From Planctomycetota bacterium (GTDB lineage Bacteria > Planctomycetota > Phycisphaerae > Sedimentisphaerales > Anaerohalosphaeraceae): a stretch of DNA of 35,927 bases. The position numbers and the translations under genes are program-made. The notes beneath the pieces were generated by a model, which was not told where the DNA came from, did not search any database, and saw only the letters and a program-made list of their open reading frames with translations. The DNA lies in NCBI GenBank assembly GCA_021160785.1, contig JAGHBX010000562.1, forward strand, positions 1 through 35,927. Reading direction: 5' to 3'. Below, one piece after another: positions 1 through 35,927 of this stretch (position 1 is the first letter of the stretch; each line of letters starts with the position of its first letter).

Positions 1-4
1 ATTT

Positions 5-1030
5 TTGTCTGTTGGAAATATGAGTTCTTTCGGTCAAACCGGTCCAGCATGCAACGGAGTCCGCGTTTTTGAATCGATGGAAATCCCCGAATTCGGCCAT
101 AATGATAAATCCAAGTACTGTACTGATGCCTTTGGGGCTGGTAATGATTGTGAGTCTGTTATTGAGGTGTTCGTTAGCCTTGATAATCAGTCTGACTTCT
201 CTGAGGATAGCGTCTCTCTGTCGTTCACGCTAATAGAATTGCTGGTTGTTATTGCGATTATTGCCCTGCTTTTATCTATCCTGCTGCCGAGCTTGAATTT
301 AGCAAAAGCCAAGGCCATGGAAATTTTTTCCATAGCGAATATGCGTGGGTTGCAAGCTTCGTGGCTTTTGTATGCTAATAACAACGACGATAAAATTGTC
401 GGCGGCAATGTAGGTTATGATACCTCTAGTATACGACCGTATCACTGGGTTCAGCCGTTTTTACCCAGTACAGGCTTGAGCGACCATGAAGCTGAACTTG
501 CCGGGATCAGAAAAGGTGCGTTATGGACTTATGTTGAAAATGAAAAAGCCTATCATAGCCCGGCAGACCGTCAATGGATCAAAGCTAAAGCAACTGCCTA
601 TAACATGTTAATGAGCCCATATCGCAGCTATGCAATCTCAGATGCGATGAATGGCGGCGTTTGGGCTAAACCGGAAGACGGTCTTTGCTATACTAAAACA
701 AACCAAATCCGGACTCCGGCCATGCGGTTCGTATTTGTTGAAGAAGAGGAATTCACCGACGGCGGAAACTGGGGGTCCTGGGTACTTCCAACTCCAGATC
801 CATCATACATGAGTAATCCATACTGGAATGATCCGGTCGCTGTCTGGTATGGGGGCACAGCAACAGCTCTGAGTTTTGCAGACGGTCATGCAGAAAAACA
901 TCTCTGGGCCGAAAAAAGTACAAGGGATATGGAAAATGATCAGAGTTGGCGACAGTATCCAGACCCAGGTGAAGAAGGGATAGATCTCAAGTTTATGATG
1001 AGAGCTTTCCATCATAATTATTTAAGGTGA
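5..1030 (+). CDS. prepilin-type N-terminal methylation-domain protein, DUF1559 / H-X9-DG-like paralog (atypical, start uncertain)
   Basis: 341-aa ORF. The pilin-like hydrophobic helix FTLIELLVVIAIIALLLSILLPSLN sits about 73 aa into the ORF instead of about aa 8. The residue before F is S, not the usual G. The C-terminal VWYGGTATALSFADGHAEKH resembles the H-X9-DG motif but reads Y-X10-DG. It is a paralog of 22072..22953. In-frame start candidates are TTG 5, ATG 20, ATG 77 and GTG 167, none with a convincing SD. Confidence 0.65.
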   Translation: MSVGNMSSFGQTGPACNGVRVFESMEIPEFGHNDKSKYCTDAFGAGNDCESVIEVFVSLDNQSDFSEDSVSLSFTLIELLVVIAIIALLLSILLPSLNLAKAKAMEIFSIANMRGLQASWLLYANNNDDKIVGGNVGYDTSSIRPYHWVQPFLPSTGLSDHEAELAGIRKGALWTYVENEKAYHSPADRQWIKAKATAYNMLMSPYRSYAISDAMNGGVWAKPEDGLCYTKTNQIRTPAMRFVFVEEEEFTDGGNWGSWVLPTPDPSYMSNPYWNDPVAVWYGGTATALSFADGHAEKHLWAEKSTRDMENDQSWRQYPDPGEEGIDLKFMMRAFHHNYLR

Positions 1031-9592: not shown

Positions 9593-9754
9593 ACTTTGGA
9601 GATTATAAAAAGCGTTAAAACGGGAAATGCCATGCAGAATACAGTGCTAACTATACGGTTTCTATGGGCTTTTCTTGGAGGATTGCTGGGCATTCTGTAT
9701 ACAAATGACGTTTTTGTCTGTGCCAGCAGGTAAATGTGCTCGCCATTACTCTGG

Positions 9755-9893
9755 ATGGATTCTCGGCCGCCAGCCACTGCGCAGGGTCGTCAGTTTTTTT
9801 TAAAAGAATTGACTATGTTTCAAGAATATGCTATTGTTAACGTACACGGTGTGGGTTTTGAGTTTACTATCCAGACTCAGATAGGCTTGGATT
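9755..9893 (+). promoter_or_regulatory. cassette copy A: terminator-like hairpin + T-run, A/T tract, sigma70-like promoter, leader hairpin
   Basis: Hairpin ACTGCG/CG(T)CAGT at 9776-9794 followed by a T-run to 9801. -35 TTGACT at 9809-9814, 17-nt spacer, -10 TATTGT at 9832-9837. Leader hairpin at 9857-9881. Near-identical copies at 21924-22071 and 35753-35899. Confidence 0.5.
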
Positions 9894-9902
9894 ATGAGAA
9901 TG

Positions 9903-9920
9903 TTATATGGGAAATCCCAG
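9903..9920. promoter_or_regulatory. TTATATGGGAAATCCCAG motif, copy 1 (contains inverted repeat TGGGA-AA-TCCCA)
   Basis: Exact 18-nt repeat of 27861-27878. It extends to a 22-bp near-palindrome TTATATGGGAAATCCCAGATAA. It lies 24 nt upstream of the ATG at 9944. Confidence 0.35.
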
Positions 9921-9943
9921 ATAATGATAGAAAGGTTTGAGTT

Positions 9944-11221
9944 ATGAGTGATCGAGGCGATATTAGTCGACGCGGGTTTTTTAAGAAGGCTTCGGCTGTT
10001 AGTGTTGGGGCTTTTGGTCTTCCTTATGTGATTCCATCGTCGGTTTTTAGCAAAGGACGAATTTTACCCAGTGAGCGTATTACCGTGGGGTTTATCGGCA
10101 CGGGTAAACAGTCTCGAAGCGTACTTCTGAGGGGTTTTCTGGGGCAAAGCAGTTGCCAGACCGTCGCTGTTTGTGATGTTGATTCCCGCAAGCGCGAACA
10201 CGCCCGGCAAATGGTCGATAAGAAGTATAAGGGTTGCTCTGAGATTCATGATTTTCGTGACTTGATAGCCCGTGATGATATTGACGCGGTCGTTGTTGCA
10301 ACACCTGACCACTGGCATGCGATTCCTTCGATTCGCGCAATGAAAGCCGGTAAGGATGTGTATTGCGAAAAGCCTTTGTCACTTACTATCGAAGAGGCTC
10401 GCGCTATGGCTGACACTACCCGGCGTTACGGGCGTGTTCTTCAGACGGGCAGCATGCAGCGGTCGGATATGAAGTTTCGGTTTGCCTGTGAGCTGGTTAG
10501 AAACGGTTACATCGGTGATATAAAGAATGTTGTTGTAAATGTCGGCGGGCCCCCGAGCGAATGTAATCTTCCGGCTGAGCCTGTTCTTAATGAACTGGAC
10601 TGGGATATGTGGCTCGGACCTGCCCCTTGGCGTCCTTATAATTCGGATATCGCTCCTCCTATTGAGAGGGATGTTTTTCCGAATTTCCGCAGCTACCGTG
10701 ATTATGCAGGCGGCGGAATGACTGATTGGGGTGCTCACCATTTCGATATCGCTCAATGGGCGCTTGGGATGGATCATACCGGTCCTGTTGAGATCATTCC
10801 GCCTAACGACAAGGATGTCAGCGTGCTTACTTATAAATATGCGAACGGGGTTGTTATGACCCGCGAAGGTACCGCAAACGGTGTTCTTTTCAACGGTACA
10901 AAGGGTAAGGTTGAAGTTAACCGCGGGTACCTTAAGACGTGGCCGGATAAGCTTGCGAGAGTTCAGCTTTCTCCGTCTGATGAGCATCTATATGCAAGTC
11001 CCGATCATTACCGGGATTTCCTGGACTGTATTCGGACTCGCAAAAAACCTATTTGTGACGTGGAGATCGGCTGTCGGTCGGCTACGGTTTGTCATATTGG
11101 TAATATTGCGTACCTGCTTGAAAGACCTCTTAAGTGGGATCCTGTTAAGGAGCGTTTTGTCGGCGACGAAGATGCTAACCGTCATCTGTCTCGCTCGATG
11201 CGCGGGCCGTGGCGACTTTAG
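9944..11221 (+). CDS. TAT-signal Gfo/Idh/MocA family NAD(P)-dependent oxidoreductase (paralog 1)
   Basis: 425 aa. Twin-arginine motif ISRRGFFKKASAVSVGAFG. Rossmann start VGFIGTGKQS. DAVVVATPDHWH and CEKPL (EKP motif). SD GAAAGG. Confidence 0.9.
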   Translation: MSDRGDISRRGFFKKASAVSVGAFGLPYVIPSSVFSKGRILPSERITVGFIGTGKQSRSVLLRGFLGQSSCQTVAVCDVDSRKREHARQMVDKKYKGCSEIHDFRDLIARDDIDAVVVATPDHWHAIPSIRAMKAGKDVYCEKPLSLTIEEARAMADTTRRYGRVLQTGSMQRSDMKFRFACELVRNGYIGDIKNVVVNVGGPPSECNLPAEPVLNELDWDMWLGPAPWRPYNSDIAPPIERDVFPNFRSYRDYAGGGMTDWGAHHFDIAQWALGMDHTGPVEIIPPNDKDVSVLTYKYANGVVMTREGTANGVLFNGTKGKVEVNRGYLKTWPDKLARVQLSPSDEHLYASPDHYRDFLDCIRTRKKPICDVEIGCRSATVCHIGNIAYLLERPLKWDPVKERFVGDEDANRHLSRSMRGPWRL

Positions 11222-16575: not shown

Positions 16576-17283
16576 ATGACAAACCCTGGAGACATTGTTT
16601 TGAATGCTGGCGATTCATTGAATTTACGAAAAAATACAACAAATAAGAAAGATTTGTCAGATAGACAAGTTGGTCATATTGTTTCGTATACTCATTGGGA
16701 TCGTGAATGGCGATACCCGATCTGGGAAACCCGGCTGATGCTTATTAGTTTTATGGATGAACTGATCGAGTGCCTTGAAAAAGGTCTCTATGCAGGTTTC
16801 CTTTTGGATGGCCAGGTTTCGCCTGTGTTGGATTATCTTGAGATCAAGCCGGAAATGAAAGATCGGCTCATTGCATTGATCAAAGCAGGCAAACTCGAGG
16901 TCGGTCCATGGTTAACGTTGCCGGACGAATATCCGGTTAACGGAGAATGTTTGGTTCGCAATCTTTTGCTTGGCATACGTGAATCTGAAAAACTCGGCGG
17001 TTCCTTTATGTGTGGTTATACCTCATTCGGCTGGGGACAGACTGCTCAATTACCGCAGATATATTCCGGTTTTGGCATTGATGTGGCCATGATCGGCAAG
17101 AAGGTAAATACAGATAGGGCCCCAAAAAATGAATTTCTATGGTTAGCTCCCGACGGCAGCGAACTTATTACCTCCCGGTTTGGCGAATGGGGCAGGCATA
17201 ACTTTATGGTTCATGTCCATCTTTCTGCCCTTATGGGAAAGCACTATACTGATGATGAGTTGGCAATATCAATGGTCCAATGA
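16576..17283 (+). pseudogene. GH38 alpha-mannosidase, N-terminal fragment (frame 1)
   Basis: HIVSYTHWDREWRYP (the GH38 HxHxDxxW-type motif), GKLEVGPWLTLPDEYPVNGECLVRNLLLG, FLWLAPDGSELI. The frame ends at TGA 17281-17283 while the homology continues in the next frame. Confidence 0.8.
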
Positions 17284-19270
17284 CGATGTGTTTTATCATC
17301 GTGCAGATAAGGACCAGAGAGAGCAGGATTTCTTCATACTCAATAAGCCGACTAAATGGCACCCGGAATGGTTAACACCTGAGATGGTCAATGAGTTATG
17401 GGATACGACTAAAGATAGCGTTGTCCCCAACGACAGATTGATGATGGATGGCGTTGACTATGCTCCTCCACAAAAAATGTTGCCTGAAATGATAGACCGT
17501 GTAAATGCCATTGACCCGCAAAAAGGACGCCTTTGGCAGCATACAGTAATGCGAAAATATGCGGAGATCATGCGTCAGAATATTGACAGATCAAAGCTCA
17601 TAAAAGTGTTTGGTGAATTGCGTGACGGCCCTGCAGGACCAACTTCGGGCAATGCACTGACAACCAGACTTTATGTAAAGCAAAAGAACAAGCTGGCTGA
17701 AAACATGTTAATTCGTTTTGCGGAGCCTTTTTCAGTTTTAACTACTATGCTCGGAGTAGAGTACCCATCCGCTCTTCTGGCAAAAGCATGGCAATTCCTT
17801 TTGAACTCTCATCCTCACGACTCGATTAACGGTGTTACTCAGGACAAGACCGTTCGAGATGTTGAAAACCGGTTGGATCAGGTAATTGACATCTCTCAGG
17901 CTCTCGGCAATAAGGCGATGCAGCAATTAATAATGAATATCGACAGATCAGGTTTTGACGAAAAAGATGTGCTGCTGGTGGTATTCAATCCTTTGCCTTA
18001 TCCAAGGCGCGAAGTTATCGATGCACAAGTGGATATCCCGAATGGCGAAGCGAACTTCTGGCCAAAGGCGGAAAATGGTTTATTTGCTTATGATCCCGAC
18101 GGCAAGGCGGTTGCGACGCAATGGATGGGATCGTTCGAGAAGACTTATCCGGTAATACAGTGGCATAGCAGGGGGTTTCCATATCATTGCAACTCACATC
18201 GTCTGTTGATCGATACCGAAGAAATACCTGCCGGCGGCTACAAGGTTTTCAAAGTCGTTTCCGTTGAAGATATAGAGGATAGGGAGATTTGCCATAAGAG
18301 CAGCCTTGTCAGCACGCCTTCACTAAGACTTGAGCCGCACACATTGGAAAATGAATATCTTAACGTTAAATTCAATGCCAATGGTACCTTTGATATTTAT
18401 TGCAAAGAACTGGACCATACGTTTGCCGACTTGAATTATTTTGAGGACCGCGGCGAATTGGGCGACTACTGGATCAATAACGTTCCCGTAAATGACCAGA
18501 TACACACATCGCTTGGCTGCAATGCAAGGATACGGACCAAAGAGCACGGCCCTTTGCAAGCTACTGTTGTTACGGAACTGACAATGGAGATTCCTAAACG
18601 CGGCATACCTTCTGAGCAGTCAAGAAGCGGTGAACTCGAAGAACTCAAGATACAGACATCTGTTACGTTAAAGAAGGACTGTAGGGCTGTTGAAGTTGAG
18701 GTGACTTTTGAAAACAAGTGCAGGGATCATTATTTACGTGTCATGATGCCGACTGATCTTGAAAATGCAACCCACGCCGATTCCGGCGGTCACTTCAATG
18801 TTGACTCCAGGCCGATCAAAACTCAGGGCCCTGAGCCTGGGTGTATTTGGCCTGACATGGTAACATTGCCTCATCAGCGTTTTGTCGATGTCAGTGATTG
18901 CAAGGGCGATTGGTATGAATCAAACATTCCATTGCAGGCAGACATCTTCAATGTTCCTGTTAGAATTGTTCAGACAAAAAAGATGGCTGGTTGCTTACCA
19001 GCCGGCAAGGCAAGTTTGTTTTCGATCGATAACCCCAATATCAGGTTATCCGCATTGAAAAAGGCTCAGGACAGCGATAACTTTATTCTGCGGGTATATA
19101 ACTCTACGGACCAAAAGCAAAATTCTACAGTTACGCTTTGCAAAGAGATCAAACAGGCATGGCAGACAGATTTAAATGAAAAACGGACCGATGCCTGCCA
19201 AATGGAAAAGAACTCTATCAAGTTAGCTCTTGACCCTCGTAAAATTGCAACATTTGAAATTATGATCTAA
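17180..19270 (+). pseudogene. GH38 alpha-mannosidase, middle and C-terminal fragment (frame 2)
   Basis: Continues GH38 features: MMDGVDYAPPQ, GELRDG, WQFLLNSHPHDSINGVTQDKTV, HQRFVDVSD, ILRVYNSTDQ. It overlaps the upstream fragment by 104 nt in a different frame. Confidence 0.8.
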
Positions 19271-21812: not shown

Positions 21813-21923
21813 CTCACATTTTTTATTATTTGAGAGATGTAGAATTCTTTATTTCTATCTAACGAAGGGATCTTTTGTGGGTTACCCTGTTTGTTGGATG
21901 CCCTGAGTAACTTAACAACAGGG

Positions 21924-22071
21924 TTAGATACCGATTCTCGGCTGGCAGCCACTGTGCAGGGTCGTCAGGTGTTTAAAAAAAAGAATTGACTATGTTTCAA
22001 GAATATGCTATTGTTAACGTACACGGCGCAGGTTCTTGGGCTTGCTATCGGGACCCAGAAAGACTTGTATT
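21924..22071 (+). promoter_or_regulatory. cassette copy B (promoter/leader for the prepilin-like gene)
   Basis: -35 TTGACT at 21986-21991, 17-nt spacer, -10 TATTGT at 22009-22014. Leader hairpin at about 22037-22057. A 10-bp bulged hairpin CCCTGT(T)TGTT/AACAACAGGG lies just before it at 21885-21923. Confidence 0.5.
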
Positions 22072-22953
22072 ATGAGAAAAAAAGGATTTACCTTGATTGA
22101 GCTTTTGGTTGTTATCGCCATAATCGCGTTATTGCTCAGTATTCTCATGCCAGTGTTGAATACAGTAAAGAAATCAGTTCAGGGCATCTTATGTGCTTCC
22201 AATGTGCGGCAATTGTCTTTAGGGTGGTTTTTATATAACGAACCAAATGGCGGGAATTTAATGCGTGCTGAAAACAATGAGCTGGTTTTGAGTTCTAGTA
22301 AAATTATCCCTCCGTGGGCGTACCAGTCGGAAATGAACCTGATAGGCGGCCCGGACGAACCTCAGGTAGAGTCTGATAAGGTAGCTATCCGCAGAGGAGC
22401 GTTGTGGCCGTATGTCGAGCATATAAAAGTATATCACTGTCCGGCTGACCGTGTTTCAAGACTCGGGCAGATGTCGGCTAATGTGTACAGGAGTTTTTCG
22501 ATGCCGCAATCGATGAATGGAGATGGTAATGCTTCAGGACAACTTAATCCGTGGCAGGCTTCAAAAGAATCCCGCATCAAAACCCCAAGCGCTAAAATGA
22601 TCTTTCTGACAGAGTTTGACGTCTGGGTTCCCGGTGTGATGGGCAATTGGGGATCGTGGGTTATGGATTACGGCAATCTCGGGAATTTCTGGGATCCTAT
22701 CGCGGTATGGCATAACAATGGAGGGACTCTGGGCTTTGCCGATGGGCACGCTGAGATGCATAAATGGAGAGACCGTGAAACCCTTGAGATGGCGAAAAAC
22801 TTTTCGGTTGGAAATGTTTCTGATCCCGCCAATAACGTCGATGTTATTTACATGAAGAACGCATACCGCGCGACTGGAAGATATAAGTGGCTATTGCCCC
22901 ATAGCCCAAACTCGCCGTTTGGCTGGTTTAGGGTTATTATATCCAATGCCTGA
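22072..22953 (+). CDS. prepilin-type N-terminal cleavage/methylation-domain protein with H-X9-DG motif (DUF1559-like)
   Basis: The track ORF starts at TTG 22036. ATG 22072 gives the canonical MRKKGFTLIELLVVIAIIALLLSILMPVLN. The C-terminal WHNNGGTLGFADGHAEMH is an exact H-X9-DG. Confidence 0.85.
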   Translation: MRKKGFTLIELLVVIAIIALLLSILMPVLNTVKKSVQGILCASNVRQLSLGWFLYNEPNGGNLMRAENNELVLSSSKIIPPWAYQSEMNLIGGPDEPQVESDKVAIRRGALWPYVEHIKVYHCPADRVSRLGQMSANVYRSFSMPQSMNGDGNASGQLNPWQASKESRIKTPSAKMIFLTEFDVWVPGVMGNWGSWVMDYGNLGNFWDPIAVWHNNGGTLGFADGHAEMHKWRDRETLEMAKNFSVGNVSDPANNVDVIYMKNAYRATGRYKWLLPHSPNSPFGWFRVIISNA

Positions 22954-23160: not shown

Positions 23161-26100
23161 ATGAACAGGAAAGGCCTCACCTCCATAACTTCAGTTTGGA
23201 TAGCATTATTAATTTGTTTTGCAGGCTATCTTACGACAGCAGTTGGTCAACAGCAGCTTTTTCCGCCTGATGGTGCCGGGGCTGTAGGCGTAGATACCGA
23301 TCTTAGCTGGACGGTTGGCAGTGAGCAGGCCGAAGCATACGATGTGTATCTTGGCACAGATCATGACGACGTATTTAACGCAATTCATTACCGCGGCGAT
23401 ATCGATGGAAGCGGACAAGTTGACGAAGGTGACGTTGAGTCACTGGCAGATTGCTGGCTTGAGGCGGTTTCCTGCGATTCGGATTTCGATGGAAGCGGTC
23501 GGGTGGATTTTGCTGATTTTGCGTTAATTGCAAGTACCTGGCTCGAATACGACAGCCCTGAGTTTATGACGCGTACAACTGACCAAAGTTATGATCCAGG
23601 CGTTCTGCAGGTCGGCCAGGAATATTTCTGGAGGGTTGACGGGATTGCAAATGAATCTGAGGTCAGCACCGGCGACACATGGAGCTTTACCACTGGTGTA
23701 AAAGTAAAGGACGGGCTGTTTGACTATGTCGATCATATTGCTGACATCGACCTGGACGGCAATATCGTCTATGCGATCAACTGCGGATCGACAGCAGATG
23801 TACAGGTCGGCTCAACTCCATTTAGAGGCGATGTTTACCAGTGGAAGGAACAGTCTGGCGATACCAACGGTGACGGCAACACCGACTGGTGGGACACACG
23901 CTACAACGCCACCTGCCCGGGCAAACCGGCTTCGCCTTCTCCGATAGCAGGTGTAACCGTCGAATGTTCCGACGGCGATACCAAGGGCATGGATCACGGC
24001 CCTTACGAAGGTTACCACAGTTTTGACGTGTCGGGCCTCTCCGGTCTGGGTGATATGACGCAGGTGCTGTCAACTTCCGGAGCACAAAATCTGGGCAACC
24101 CCGGCGAACGCGACATGATCTATCGCCTTGACGTAACGCCCGGCAAAAAATACAAATTACAATTGTTCTTCTTTAAGAACAGTACAGAATCAACCGGTAT
24201 GGATGTACTGGTCGAAGGTAATCTTGTCATAGACGGCCTTGATGTGCCTGTCGATGTTGCAAACGCCGGCTATAACAAAGCTAATACCGTATTGATGTAC
24301 AGTACTATAGTGACCGCCACGGACAGCCAACTCGACATTGTCATCAAGAGAAATTCATCATATAACGGCATGGGCGACATCAATGCCATTACGCTGGAAT
24401 ATATCACCACCGAAGACGGGCTGTTTGACTATGTCGATGATATTGCTGACATCGGCCTGGGCGGCAATATCGTCTATGCGATCAACTGCGGATCGGATCA
24501 GAATATCACTGTAGGTTCAGTTGATTTTAGAGGCGACGTCTACCTGTGGCACAACGACGCAGGCGACACAAACGGCGATGGCAACACCGACTGGTGGGAC
24601 ACACTTTATAATGCCAACTGTCCGGGCAAACCTGCTTCACCTTCTCCGATAGCAGGCGTAACTGTAGAATGTTCCGACGGCGATACCAACGGCATGGATC
24701 ACGGCCCCTACGAAGGGAACCACACTTTTGACGTCTCGGGTATCTCCGGTCTGGGGAATATGGCACAGGTACTGTCAACTTCCGGATCGCAAAATCTCGG
24801 CAGCCCCGGCGAACGCGACATGATCTACCGGCTGGATGTAACGCCCGGCAAAAAATACAAATTACAATTGTTCTTCTTTAAGAACAGTACAGACTCTACC
24901 GATATGGATGTCCTGATCGAAGACAGTCTTATTATAGACGGTCTTGATGTTCCTGTCGACATCACAAATGCCGGCCATGACAAAGCTAATACTGTATTGA
25001 TTTACAGTACTATATTAACCGCCACGGACAGCCGGACCGACATTGTCATTCAGGGTCATGGGGCATCCAACAAAATCGGTGAAATCAATGCGATCACGCT
25101 GGCCGAGCCGACCAGCTTGACTTCTTCCACCGGTTTGAAATTGGCGGGAGCACCTGACGGAGTAAATGTTTTCAATTCGGATGGCTCCCGGCGTATGCGC
25201 TTTAGAGGGTTTCTGACCAACCTTGGTATGACGGACACCGCTACCCCGTCCCTGATCACCTATAATGGCGACCCGACGATTCAAATGAGCTATACCACTA
25301 CCGGCGATTTGAGTATTACAGGATTTTTCACGCCAATAGGTGATATGATTCGCATTCATTACGATGTATGGGCCGACAGCAGCCCGAATACAGGTACATC
25401 GTCCCTGCTGTTTGAAGCAGACGGCTCGGGCATGGCTCGGGACAATCAGAGCCTCTGGACTCGCAGTACTCAACCAGATGGGGTGTCTTATGAGGTAGTG
25501 GACTCGCATGGATTCCGATTTGACTTTCCCTCCGGTGAATCTACGCTTTTAAATCTTCCCAACGCAAATCTTAATTGGGCCGATCCCTGGTTTTCAAACC
25601 TTCCCCTCTACCAGGTCGCCGGTGATCATTGGGCAACAGATGCAGACTGGGTTTTGATCGAGAATAACATCCGACCGACTGCCGGCCCAACGCTCGTTAA
25701 AGGCCGTCCGTTGGCTTTGGACATCTGGACAACCCAAACTTACAACCTGTGGAACGATTCAGCCAGTCCTCTTCCCTTAAACACACAGGTATTCAACGCC
25801 CTGCCCAACAGCCAAACCGTCACGTTGAGTTGGTGGGCGCGTGACTATAACGACAATGTGATTACCTCCGACAGTGCCGTTAAAAATGTTGCGGCCGGCG
25901 CAGTTTGGAATCAAACCCTTACATTCCCGGCGCCGGCACATGGAATCTTATTTGTCGAAGTTGAGGCCACAGCGGGGGCATACTCGGTATTCAGGCGAAC
26001 TAATTTGGCGGTATTACCGCCTTATACCTACGGCAGCGATAGAAGCAACAGCATTTTTGGTCTTAACGGCACCTTTGGATTGCCGGATACGACGTCAGAA

Positions 26101-30160: not shown

Positions 30161-30219
30161 AGGATGCCCTATAGTAATAAATAGCTTTTGCTAAAAAATA
30201 GCATTTGGAAGGTATTTTG

Positions 30220-31533
30220 ATGAACACTATTAGATATAAAACACTTGGCATATTAGCATTGATATTTGTGTCATGTTTTATCAATGTCCTTTCAGCCGAC
30301 ACTGTTGCTCAACACCCAATACTTTATCAGGGCTTGGTGTCTTATTATGAATTTGAAGATAATTTTGCAGATCAGCTTGGGCGTAACGACGGCAAGCTGA
30401 ACAAGAATAACACATCTTCCTTTGTCGATGGTTTAATAGGTAAAGCGTTTTATACAAAAGACCAGGGAACTCATATCTCTTTGGGCCCTGATATAATTCT
30501 GGCGAGGAAATCTTTTTCGATTCAGGTTTGGGTCAAGCTTGATTACCCGCGTTTTAAGCATAATGTGCACTTTTTTCAGTTTGAACAACGATCGGTAAAA
30601 GATGAAAATCTGGTAGTCGCATCAATAGAGAACCATGTCAAGCTGGCCTATCACTGGAATGATATTAATGGGCCTGAAGTTGCCGATTTTTCAAAGTGGA
30701 CGCATATAGTTATAACCGCGGATTTTAATGAATATAATGACATCGGCAGGTCGCGAAAAATATATGTAAACGGCGAGCTGAGAGCCGAAGATCGTATGCA
30801 GGGCGGCATATTTATTGGCACCATCGGCCAGGCCAGGATTGCCAGTTCCTGTGAGGACACAAGGTTTGACAATCTAGGCATCTGGTATAGAAGCCTGGAT
30901 GCCACTGAGGTTTCAGCATTGTACAATGATGGCAAAGGTTTGGCATTCGGTCAGTTAAAGGGTTCCCAGCCCAGTATGCAATTTACAAACCCATCAGCTG
31001 GTCAACTATTGCGATCTGATAGCATAGTTGATCTTAAATGGAACGCTGAAGGCAGACCGCTTAGTCTTGTCAACCTTGAATATAAGGCTGACAACAATCA
31101 ATGGCAGCTTATCGAAAAAAATATCCCCTCCACGGGTAGTTTTCTATGGAAAGTGCCCTATCACCAAAGCGATAATGTTCGTCTAAGACTTACTGATGTA
31201 TCGAACGGGAAACAATACACCCAGCAAAACAGTTTTTCTATTAAGCCGACAGTTGTAAGTATAAGCGACGTTAAATGGATTACGTCAAAGTCTACTCCAG
31301 GCCACAGAGCGCAAATAAGATGGAACAACACCGGTCGGATAGAACGAGTAAAGATCATGTATTCAGTTGACGGTAAAAAATGGGAACTGATAGATGCGTC
31401 CACTGAAAACGACAATATATATGTATGGCGAATCCCCTGGGATCTAAAAGCAGAGAGTTTCAAGGTTCGTATCAGTGATATTACCAGCAACACCGATGCA
31501 GACAGTGGTATTATCAAAGTAGATAGAAAGTAG
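30220..31533 (+). CDS. secreted LamG (concanavalin-like lectin) domain protein with two C-terminal Ig-like beta-sandwich repeats
   Basis: The track ORF starts at 30205. ATG 30220 follows GGAAGG and gives MNTIRYKTLGILALIFVSCFINVLSA. LamG-type LVSYYEFEDN..GKAFY..FSIQVWVKL..LGIWYRSLDATEVSALYNDGKG. Two repeats end in FLWKVPYHQSDNVRLRLTDVSNG and YVWRIPWDLKAESFKVRISDITSN. Confidence 0.8.
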   Translation: MNTIRYKTLGILALIFVSCFINVLSADTVAQHPILYQGLVSYYEFEDNFADQLGRNDGKLNKNNTSSFVDGLIGKAFYTKDQGTHISLGPDIILARKSFSIQVWVKLDYPRFKHNVHFFQFEQRSVKDENLVVASIENHVKLAYHWNDINGPEVADFSKWTHIVITADFNEYNDIGRSRKIYVNGELRAEDRMQGGIFIGTIGQARIASSCEDTRFDNLGIWYRSLDATEVSALYNDGKGLAFGQLKGSQPSMQFTNPSAGQLLRSDSIVDLKWNAEGRPLSLVNLEYKADNNQWQLIEKNIPSTGSFLWKVPYHQSDNVRLRLTDVSNGKQYTQQNSFSIKPTVVSISDVKWITSKSTPGHRAQIRWNNTGRIERVKIMYSVDGKKWELIDASTENDNIYVWRIPWDLKAESFKVRISDITSNTDADSGIIKVDRK

Positions 31534-35627: not shown

Positions 35628-35752
35628 TAAATTAAAGGATCACAAATGCTCTGTAGAAAAGCTCTGAATTTTCACCGTTAAACCTTGCGCTATCTCGGGA
35701 TTGACCTCTGCAGTGCAGTGCGGGGCGTCGATGGGCCTGAAGAATACACCGG

Positions 35753-35899
35753 CTAGATACCGAATCTCGGCCGCCAGCCGCTGCGCAGGGTCGTCAGTTT
35801 TTTTAAAAAAGAATTGACTATATTTCAAGAATACGCTATTGTTAACGTACACGGTGCAGGGTTTTGAGTTTGTTATCCAGACTCAGAGAGGCTTGGATT
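35753..35899 (+). promoter_or_regulatory. cassette copy C (promoter/leader)
   Basis: Hairpin + T-run at 35777-35804. -35 TTGACT at 35814-35819, 17-nt spacer, -10 TATTGT at 35837-35842. Leader hairpin at 35863-35887. ATG at 35900. Confidence 0.5.
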
Positions 35900-35927
35900 A
35901 TGAGAAAAGGATTTATCTTCGTAGGGA
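35900..35927 (+). CDS. 5' end of a CDS running off the window (MRKGFIFVG...), possibly a diverged prepilin-like gene
   Basis: The ATG is in the same position relative to the cassette as MRKKGFTLIELL at 22072. Only 9 codons are visible, and they do not show the canonical TLIEL. Confidence 0.35.

Follow-up and report, generated by a model that had tools for sequence, protein, structure and literature searches.

What is the short sequence that stands at the head of successive gene sets in this planctomycete locus, and how did it come to stand there more than once? The stretch of DNA analysed here, hereafter called the window, comprises 35,927 nt and is a complete contig of an uncultured planctomycete, and three copies of a non-coding module of ~150-215 bp (the cassette) were found in it at the places where a preliminary description had located them. 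Together with two copies outside the window, five copies (A-E) are known. Each of them is intergenic, lies upstream of a gene start and is correctly oriented to it, and the three copies in the window each occupy a gap that follows a long set of same-strand genes. The suggestion that they divide the array into sub-operons is in line with such positions, at which one same-strand gene set after another begins.

Alignment and profile searches placed copy A, the shortest, at 9758-9900, the full-length copy B at 21880-22094 and copy C at 35730-35922 (with a 5' edge at about 35730), all on the plus strand. Copy A begins with a GC-rich block (9758-9793), which is followed by a T/A tract (9794-8, with the T-run at 9794-9801), a TTGACT hexamer at -35 (9809-9814), a TATTGT hexamer at -10 (9832-9837), a predicted transcription start at about 9844, a predicted leader hairpin at about 9850-9893 and the heptamer ATGAGAA (9894-9900), which supplies the ATG at 9894. 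In copy B, an upstream inverted-repeat region (21880-21932) precedes the GC-rich block (21933-21968) and an A/T tract whose T-run is broken (GTGTTTAAAAAAAA), after which come the -35 (21986-21991) and -10 (22009-22014) hexamers, a predicted start at about 22021, the leader hairpin and the ATG at 22072. Copy C comprises the GC-rich block at 35762-35797, a T/A tract with its T-run at 35798-35804, the hexamers at 35814-35819 and 35837-35842, a predicted start at about 35849, the leader hairpin and the ATG at 35900. The TTGACT-17-TATTGT unit accordingly spans 9809-9837 in A, 21986-22014 in B and 35814-35842 in C, and the distance from the -10 hexamer to the ATG is 56-57 nt in every copy. A search with the 44-nt core GAATTGACTATGTTTCAAGAATATGCTATTGTTAACGTACACGG recovered positions 9806 and 21983 without mismatches and 35811 with two, in line with the identity of A and B and the two differences in C that had been described; the number of matches expected in shuffled sequence was 0.00 (100 shuffles).

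Alignment with long flanks revealed homology edges that are sharp but unequal among the copies, with unrelated 5' flanks. The 5' extension of copy B to 21880 adds ~55 nt that carry an inverted repeat (CCCTGTTTGTT/AACAACAGGG); this extra sequence with its 10-bp inverted repeat is common to copies B, D and E and is partly kept in C. At the 3' edge, homology runs in all copies through ATGAGAA, which is invariant in all five. Copy A ends directly after this heptamer, homology in copies B and C runs about 22 nt into the coding sequence, and copies B-E include the start codon together with the first ~20 nt of the coding sequence. Public gene calls contain a 68-aa ORF (P0121, window 9734-9940) that reads across cassette A; it was rejected as a gene because the frame is interrupted or the ATG absent in copies B and C, and a protein search with it for further copies returned only its self-match. 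A coding role of the cassette was likewise rejected, as copy C has ATA in place of an internal ATG, indels of 1-2 nt shift the frame, and the substitutions in the GC-rich block are non-synonymous.

The two remaining copies lie just upstream of the window, on ENA scaffold_246. A scaffold that reaches 10 kb upstream of the window (L013), recovered by an exact-protein look-up of the full-length version of the window's first gene, holds both of them: copy D some 0.9 kb upstream of the window, and copy E in inverted orientation, where it is placed to drive a divergent glycan operon (DUF7402, GH3-PA14 and GH32) whose first gene is an intact prepilin-like one (MRKGFTLIELLVV). Copies D and E form a divergent promoter pair, with no co-directional operon upstream of either. 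The single orientation of the preliminary description holds for the in-window copies A-C, which are on the plus strand, but not for the inverted copy E just outside the window. All known copies fall within about 47 kb.

A five-copy nhmmer profile was used to search the window and the related loci; it recovered exactly the five loci A-E, and no degenerate or further copies were detected in the window or in any related locus. Scanning 185,579 representative genomes, among which the source organism is not represented, with the pattern TTGACT-N17-TA-N3-TTAACGTACAC yielded no cassette and only two chance pattern matches, both in Firmicutes and without the upstream block. A pattern scan of metagenomes returned two short contigs, one with the copy A locus from a near-identical strain (L003) and one with copy D (L004), a count that is a lower bound, as the collection misses samples that do hold the cassette. 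Exact-protein look-ups located the same loci in three further samples, and overall these loci occur, with near-identical cassettes, in at least four metagenome samples, the organism being present in JGI 3300033388, 3300016457 and Ga0136651 and in ENA ERZ23499350; look-ups of the copy B gene (from its ATG) and of the HEAT gene found neither protein on record. By profile search, the cassette is absent at the related loci L006, which carries a homolog of the copy B gene (64% identical), L014 (54% homolog) and L015-L021. The L006 homolog lies 23 nt after another gene and matches the window from its ATG onward only, and the prepilin-like genes at two other Phycisphaerae loci have no upstream sequence common to each other. 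Because the cassette is absent from L006 and L014 and other Phycisphaerae prepilin-like genes share no upstream sequence, we take it to be specific to this lineage. Homologs of the window's prepilin-like proteins are named Anaerohalosphaera, Sedimentisphaerales or Phycisphaerae, which places the source among planctomycetes of the Phycisphaerae type. The literature searched contained nothing relevant on promoters of DUF1559 or prepilin genes in Planctomycetes.

A prepilin-like gene begins at the cassette in four of the five copies (B-E), which supports the previously noted link to this gene family. These genes are intact after copies B and E; the first gene of the copy B operon (22072-22953, plus strand) encodes a protein with a prepilin-type N-terminal methylation motif (MRKKGFTLIELLVV...). 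After copies C and D, the first 20-23 nt of the prepilin-like gene are followed by a repeated insert. The prepilin-like gene is missing after copy A, where the next gene encodes an unrelated Gfo/Idh/MocA oxidoreductase; here the cassette ATG opens a 17-codon uORF (9894-9947), and the TGA of this uORF overlaps the Gfo/Idh/MocA ATG at 9944. The sequence that follows the copy A ATGAGAA (TTATATGGGAAATCCCAGAT, 9902-9922) matches positions 165-185 of L014, where another organism has a prepilin-led ThuA/GFO operon with this sequence natively upstream of it, and this match suggests that cassette A became attached to a regulatory region of greater age. Behind the cassettes lie gene clusters for glycan degradation, which comprise GH38, GH67N-like and Pel9A/GH120-like beta-helix proteins as well as PA14, LamG and ThuA-HEAT proteins and an MFS sugar transporter.

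The cassette and the genes behind it differ strongly in their degree of conservation, as had been proposed: pairwise identity of the cassette amounts to 84-94% over about 146 nt in all ten pairs, versus 45-49% at the nucleotide and 37-40% at the amino acid level for the prepilin-like genes behind B, D and E. Based on this difference, the cassette either is far younger than the downstream genes or has been homogenised among them. The question raised earlier, whether the copies are merely parts of larger segmental duplications, is answered in the negative for three of them (A, B and E), and the exception is the pair C and D, in which about 200 nt of further downstream sequence are shared. Promoter reuse of this kind has been described as putative mobile promoters (Matus-Garcia, Nijveen & van Passel, NAR 2012), for which a commentary (PMC3575422) asks for 80% identity or more across 50 nt or more, in regions that precede genes without close paralogy to each other. 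The cassette fits this operational definition in the identity of all ten pairs and, apart from the C/D pair, in the dissimilarity of the coding sequences (B, D and E). It resembles putative mobile promoters in that similar upstream regions precede less conserved coding sequences, in several copies per genome; such promoters also often lie near IS elements, and their mode of spread is unknown. In contrast to them, the cassette is longer (150-215 nt) and takes in all of the 5' leader as well as the start codon and as much as 22 nt of coding sequence, four of its five copies are linked to a single gene family, and its known copies are clustered, which points to local gene conversion rather than to genome-wide mobility.

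A sigma70-like TTGACT-17 nt-TATTGT arrangement, as described before, was called in all five copies with invariant hexamers. Its match to the E. coli consensus is 9/12 (5/6 at -35 and 4/6 at -10), to be read with the host being a planctomycete, and such a match by itself occurs at chance frequency (33 sites in 20 kb versus 28.4 expected). The distribution of substitutions is more telling. Both hexamers, the 12 nt that follow the -10 hexamer and ATGAGAA, 31 positions in total, are without any variation among the five copies, compared with 16 variable positions out of 45 for the leader hairpin (Fisher p = 8.5e-5); across the stretch from -35 to +12, 4 of 41 positions vary versus 23 of 81 elsewhere (p = 0.02), and all four changes between -35 and -10 are confined to the spacer. 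Invariance and position, and not the hexamer match, carry the argument for a promoter. Among only five recently related copies, this invariance could partly reflect recency instead of selection. An extended -10 TG is present in only two of the five copies.

Upstream of the -35 hexamer, the 20 nt are 75-95% A+T. The UP-element consensus of the rrnB P1 class reportedly goes back to work by Estrem and colleagues from 1998. Against this consensus (NNAAAWWTWTTTTNNAAAANNN, -38 to -59), which is an E. coli one, the A/T tract scores 9-12 of 15 with the distal AAA missing, which places it in the top 0.03-2.6% of window positions. The cassette resembles an E. coli sigma70 promoter with UP element in its -35 hexamer, 17-nt spacer and -10 hexamer and agrees with it in part in the A/T tract, which spans about -38 to -55; it differs from it in belonging to a planctomycete and in having the TG extension in a minority of copies. 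To our knowledge, E. coli promoter rules are poorly validated in Planctomycetota, where promoter rules are largely unmapped, and the promoters and 5' leaders of this phylum, especially those of uncultured Phycisphaerae, are almost uncharacterised. With this in mind, a housekeeping-sigma promoter with an UP-like tract and starts near 9844, 22021 and 35849 appears to be the appropriate reading. Other promoter classes were rejected: a sigma54-type element (GG-N10-GC, -24/-12) is represented by TGGCAG-N5-GTGCA in copy B only (21941-21958), the other copies having GCCAG at -24 as read from the alignment, and no convincing -35/-10 of the ECF type was seen by eye. On the minus strand of each cassette, an antisense promoter-like match, TTAACA-17-CATAGT (9/12), overlaps the sense hexamers, in A at 9812-9840 and in B at 21989-22017; it is invariant only because its bases are common to the sense hexamers.

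These observations are best accommodated if the cassette is a reused promoter with its 5' leader that was copied or homogenised from the upstream region of one prepilin-like gene onto the heads of five neighbouring glycan-degradation operons, and we consider this explanation probable. RNA polymerase carrying a housekeeping sigma factor would bind TTGACT-17 nt-TATTGT, aided by the T-run/A-run upstream of -35 acting as an UP-like A/T tract, and transcription would start about 7 nt past the -10 hexamer. The resulting leader of ~51 nt could fold into an imperfect stem-loop that ends a few bases before the AUG, which would be used without a Shine-Dalgarno sequence. The GC-rich block, in B, D and E together with the ~55 nt that carry the 10-bp inverted repeat (about -55 to -150), would be the likeliest docking site for a regulator, and by sharing it the five operons would, as we propose, be co-regulated. 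This block of ~36 nt is not structured beyond chance; short palindromes (CTGCGCAG, CCGAnnnTCGG) occur in it, with centres around -65 and further out, and a candidate binding site for a regulator common to the copies is the role that suggests itself most naturally. No regulator gene was seen near the cassettes.

Before competing explanations are weighed, the sequences of insertion elements next to the cassettes need to be described. The insert that follows copies C and D measures ~1.1 kb, lies at the same site 20-23 nt into the prepilin-like coding sequence, between GCGTTTATCTT and GTCGTTCACG, and carries an IS110-family Transposase_20 fragment on the minus strand (Pfam E = 6e-15). Pieces of it were located at window 1-220 and 35920-35927, at L013 9822-10936 and at L010 4826-5016, so that the 35,927-bp contig is bounded by the insert at both ends. 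The right part (window 1-220, minus strand, with the end of the Transposase_20 fragment up to 118) lies between copy D and the window's first gene, and the prepilin-like gene resumes at window 221 (SFTLIELLVV). Joining the left flank of copy D to window 221 restores an in-frame sequence (MRKKAFILSFTLIELLVV), and the odd first ORF of the window is therefore best read as the interrupted gene of copy D. At copy C, the junction runs from ATCTT into CGTAGGGA, where the contig ends. Identity between the insert copies of C and D is about 85% over the initial ~115 nt and 100% over the 82 nt that follow. Between the divergent copies E and D, L013 9280-9400 holds a fragment of the C-terminus of an IS3-family (rve-type) transposase (..GSPWENGYVESFNSKL).

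The same five copies could be a neutral relic of recent duplications or gene-conversion tracts, in which similarity would reflect recency only and no selected shared role beyond that of the ancestral region. Their clustering within about 47 kb, their mosaic relationships, the adjoining IS3 and IS110 fragments and the lack of copies in other organisms among the searched genomes and related loci would all be expected under such a history. It would not account for a pattern of substitutions that spares both hexamers, the start region and the ATG (p = 8.5e-5), for a cassette A that is intact after the loss of its gene, or for the fixed distance to the ATG, and we regard this explanation as unlikely. 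A far more ambitious proposal would turn the reused promoter into an actively propagating regulatory unit with a protein-docking platform, gene-converted onto pseudopilin-led glycan operons to form one regulon, and the IS110-family insert into an RNA-guided site-specific element that targets the cassette-linked gene start and switches operons off or shuffles cassettes. Taken jointly, these suppositions are speculative and rather improbable.

The preliminary description had also assigned an intrinsic terminator to the cassette, formed by an upstream ACTGCG-cagggt-CGTCAGT hairpin and the T-run and proposed to insulate the promoter; in this model the hairpin would end the preceding operon and the promoter would restart transcription. 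As a sequence, the hairpin with its T-run is present in copies A and C; copies A, C and D have 7-8 T directly after a small imperfect stem, much like a Rho-independent terminator, and a long co-directional gene set precedes each of A, B and C. The stem itself turned out to be trivial, however, with -3.6 to -4.0 kcal/mol and z-scores of 0 to +0.8 against shuffles. In copy E it is lost through mutation of the 3' arm (-1.7 kcal/mol), the T-run following the mutated arm as TTAATTTTT, and in copy B the T-run reads GTGTTT, whereas a genuine terminator would be kept. No terminator was called at the proposed stem by a terminator scan, longer upstream segments fold no more stably than shuffles, and the divergent copies D and E have no upstream transcript to stop. 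The assignment as a terminator is thus not upheld, an insulating function is improbable, and the T-run/A-run fits better as an UP-like A/T tract.

The leader RNA deserves attention in its own right, since it could be the functional core of the cassette, as a thermosensor, protein-binding hairpin or translation gate, with the upstream DNA carried along. An imperfect stem-loop of ~20 bp reaching to the AUG is predicted in the leader of all copies (95.5% of cells pair), and one A-U to G-U to G-C series as well as several one-sided changes preserve pairing, so we consider the stem-loop plausible. As evidence for an RNA-based function these features are outweighed by several others: covariation is not significant, as 163 of 500 shuffles do as well as the one compensatory pair, fold z-scores only range from -0.7 to -2.0, the hairpin is the least conserved block of the cassette, and a leader of this length leaves no room for a ligand-sensing domain. 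Rfam 15 gave no match at gathering thresholds in the window, none in L003 or L004, and for copy B, at E up to 10, only two sub-threshold chance matches to lncRNAs. A leader RNA as the functional core is accordingly very unlikely.

Correia elements, ERIC and REPIN are short intergenic repeats that are able to supply promoters, and the cassette is a short intergenic promoter-like repeat as well. It differs from them in having neither terminal inverted repeats nor target duplications, in its variable 5' ends and in its fixed orientation and register to the start codon. A miniature mobile element of the Correia, ERIC or MITE type with an outward promoter, transposing as a discrete unit, would match the repeated sequence and the nearby transposase remnants, but is highly improbable given that the cassette ends show no terminal inverted repeat of at least 7 nt and no target-site duplication, that the 5' edges differ at constant orientation and distance to the ATG, and that the unit takes in the start codon, to which copies B-E add the initial ~20 nt of coding sequence. 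Direct repeats at the junctions are at most 6 nt long and inconsistent between copies. The relationships among the copies are mosaic, as B, D and E share the extra upstream sequence and C and D share downstream sequence. Together with the variable 5' edges, the missing transposon hallmarks and the adjacent IS3/IS110 remnants, this mosaic points to a spread of the reused promoter by recombination or gene conversion among nearby loci and not as a discrete transposable unit.

If the reading as a reused promoter with its leader is correct, the cassette would offer a testable case of promoter reuse that wires several polysaccharide-degradation operons together, a putative strong promoter as a candidate for genetic tools, and a marker of where operons begin and end in these genomes. 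The cassette also accounts for the breaks in assemblies of this organism at these places and for the spurious 68-aa 'protein' that gene callers report across it.

Several minor features of the window and of related loci were recorded in addition. In the related 4.9-Mb Phycisphaerae genome that contains L015, a prepilin-led glycan operon is directly preceded by a pair of genes for an ECF sigma factor and a FecR-like anti-sigma factor (L015 13213-15470). In the window, 64 nt (1064-1127) of the gap that follows the first gene are 81% identical to 30875-30938 within a LamG-domain gene (30205-31533) and are probably a gene fragment. The gene for a 1497-aa PA14-domain protein contains a 705-nt internal tandem duplication (23710-24105 and 24415-24810, 83-96% identity). 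Finally, the GH38 alpha-mannosidase is encoded in two overlapping ORFs, 16576-17283 for the N-terminal domain and 17180-19270 for the middle and C-terminal domains, and because the independent assemblies L005 and L011 contain the same split, we interpret it as a real frameshift or split gene.
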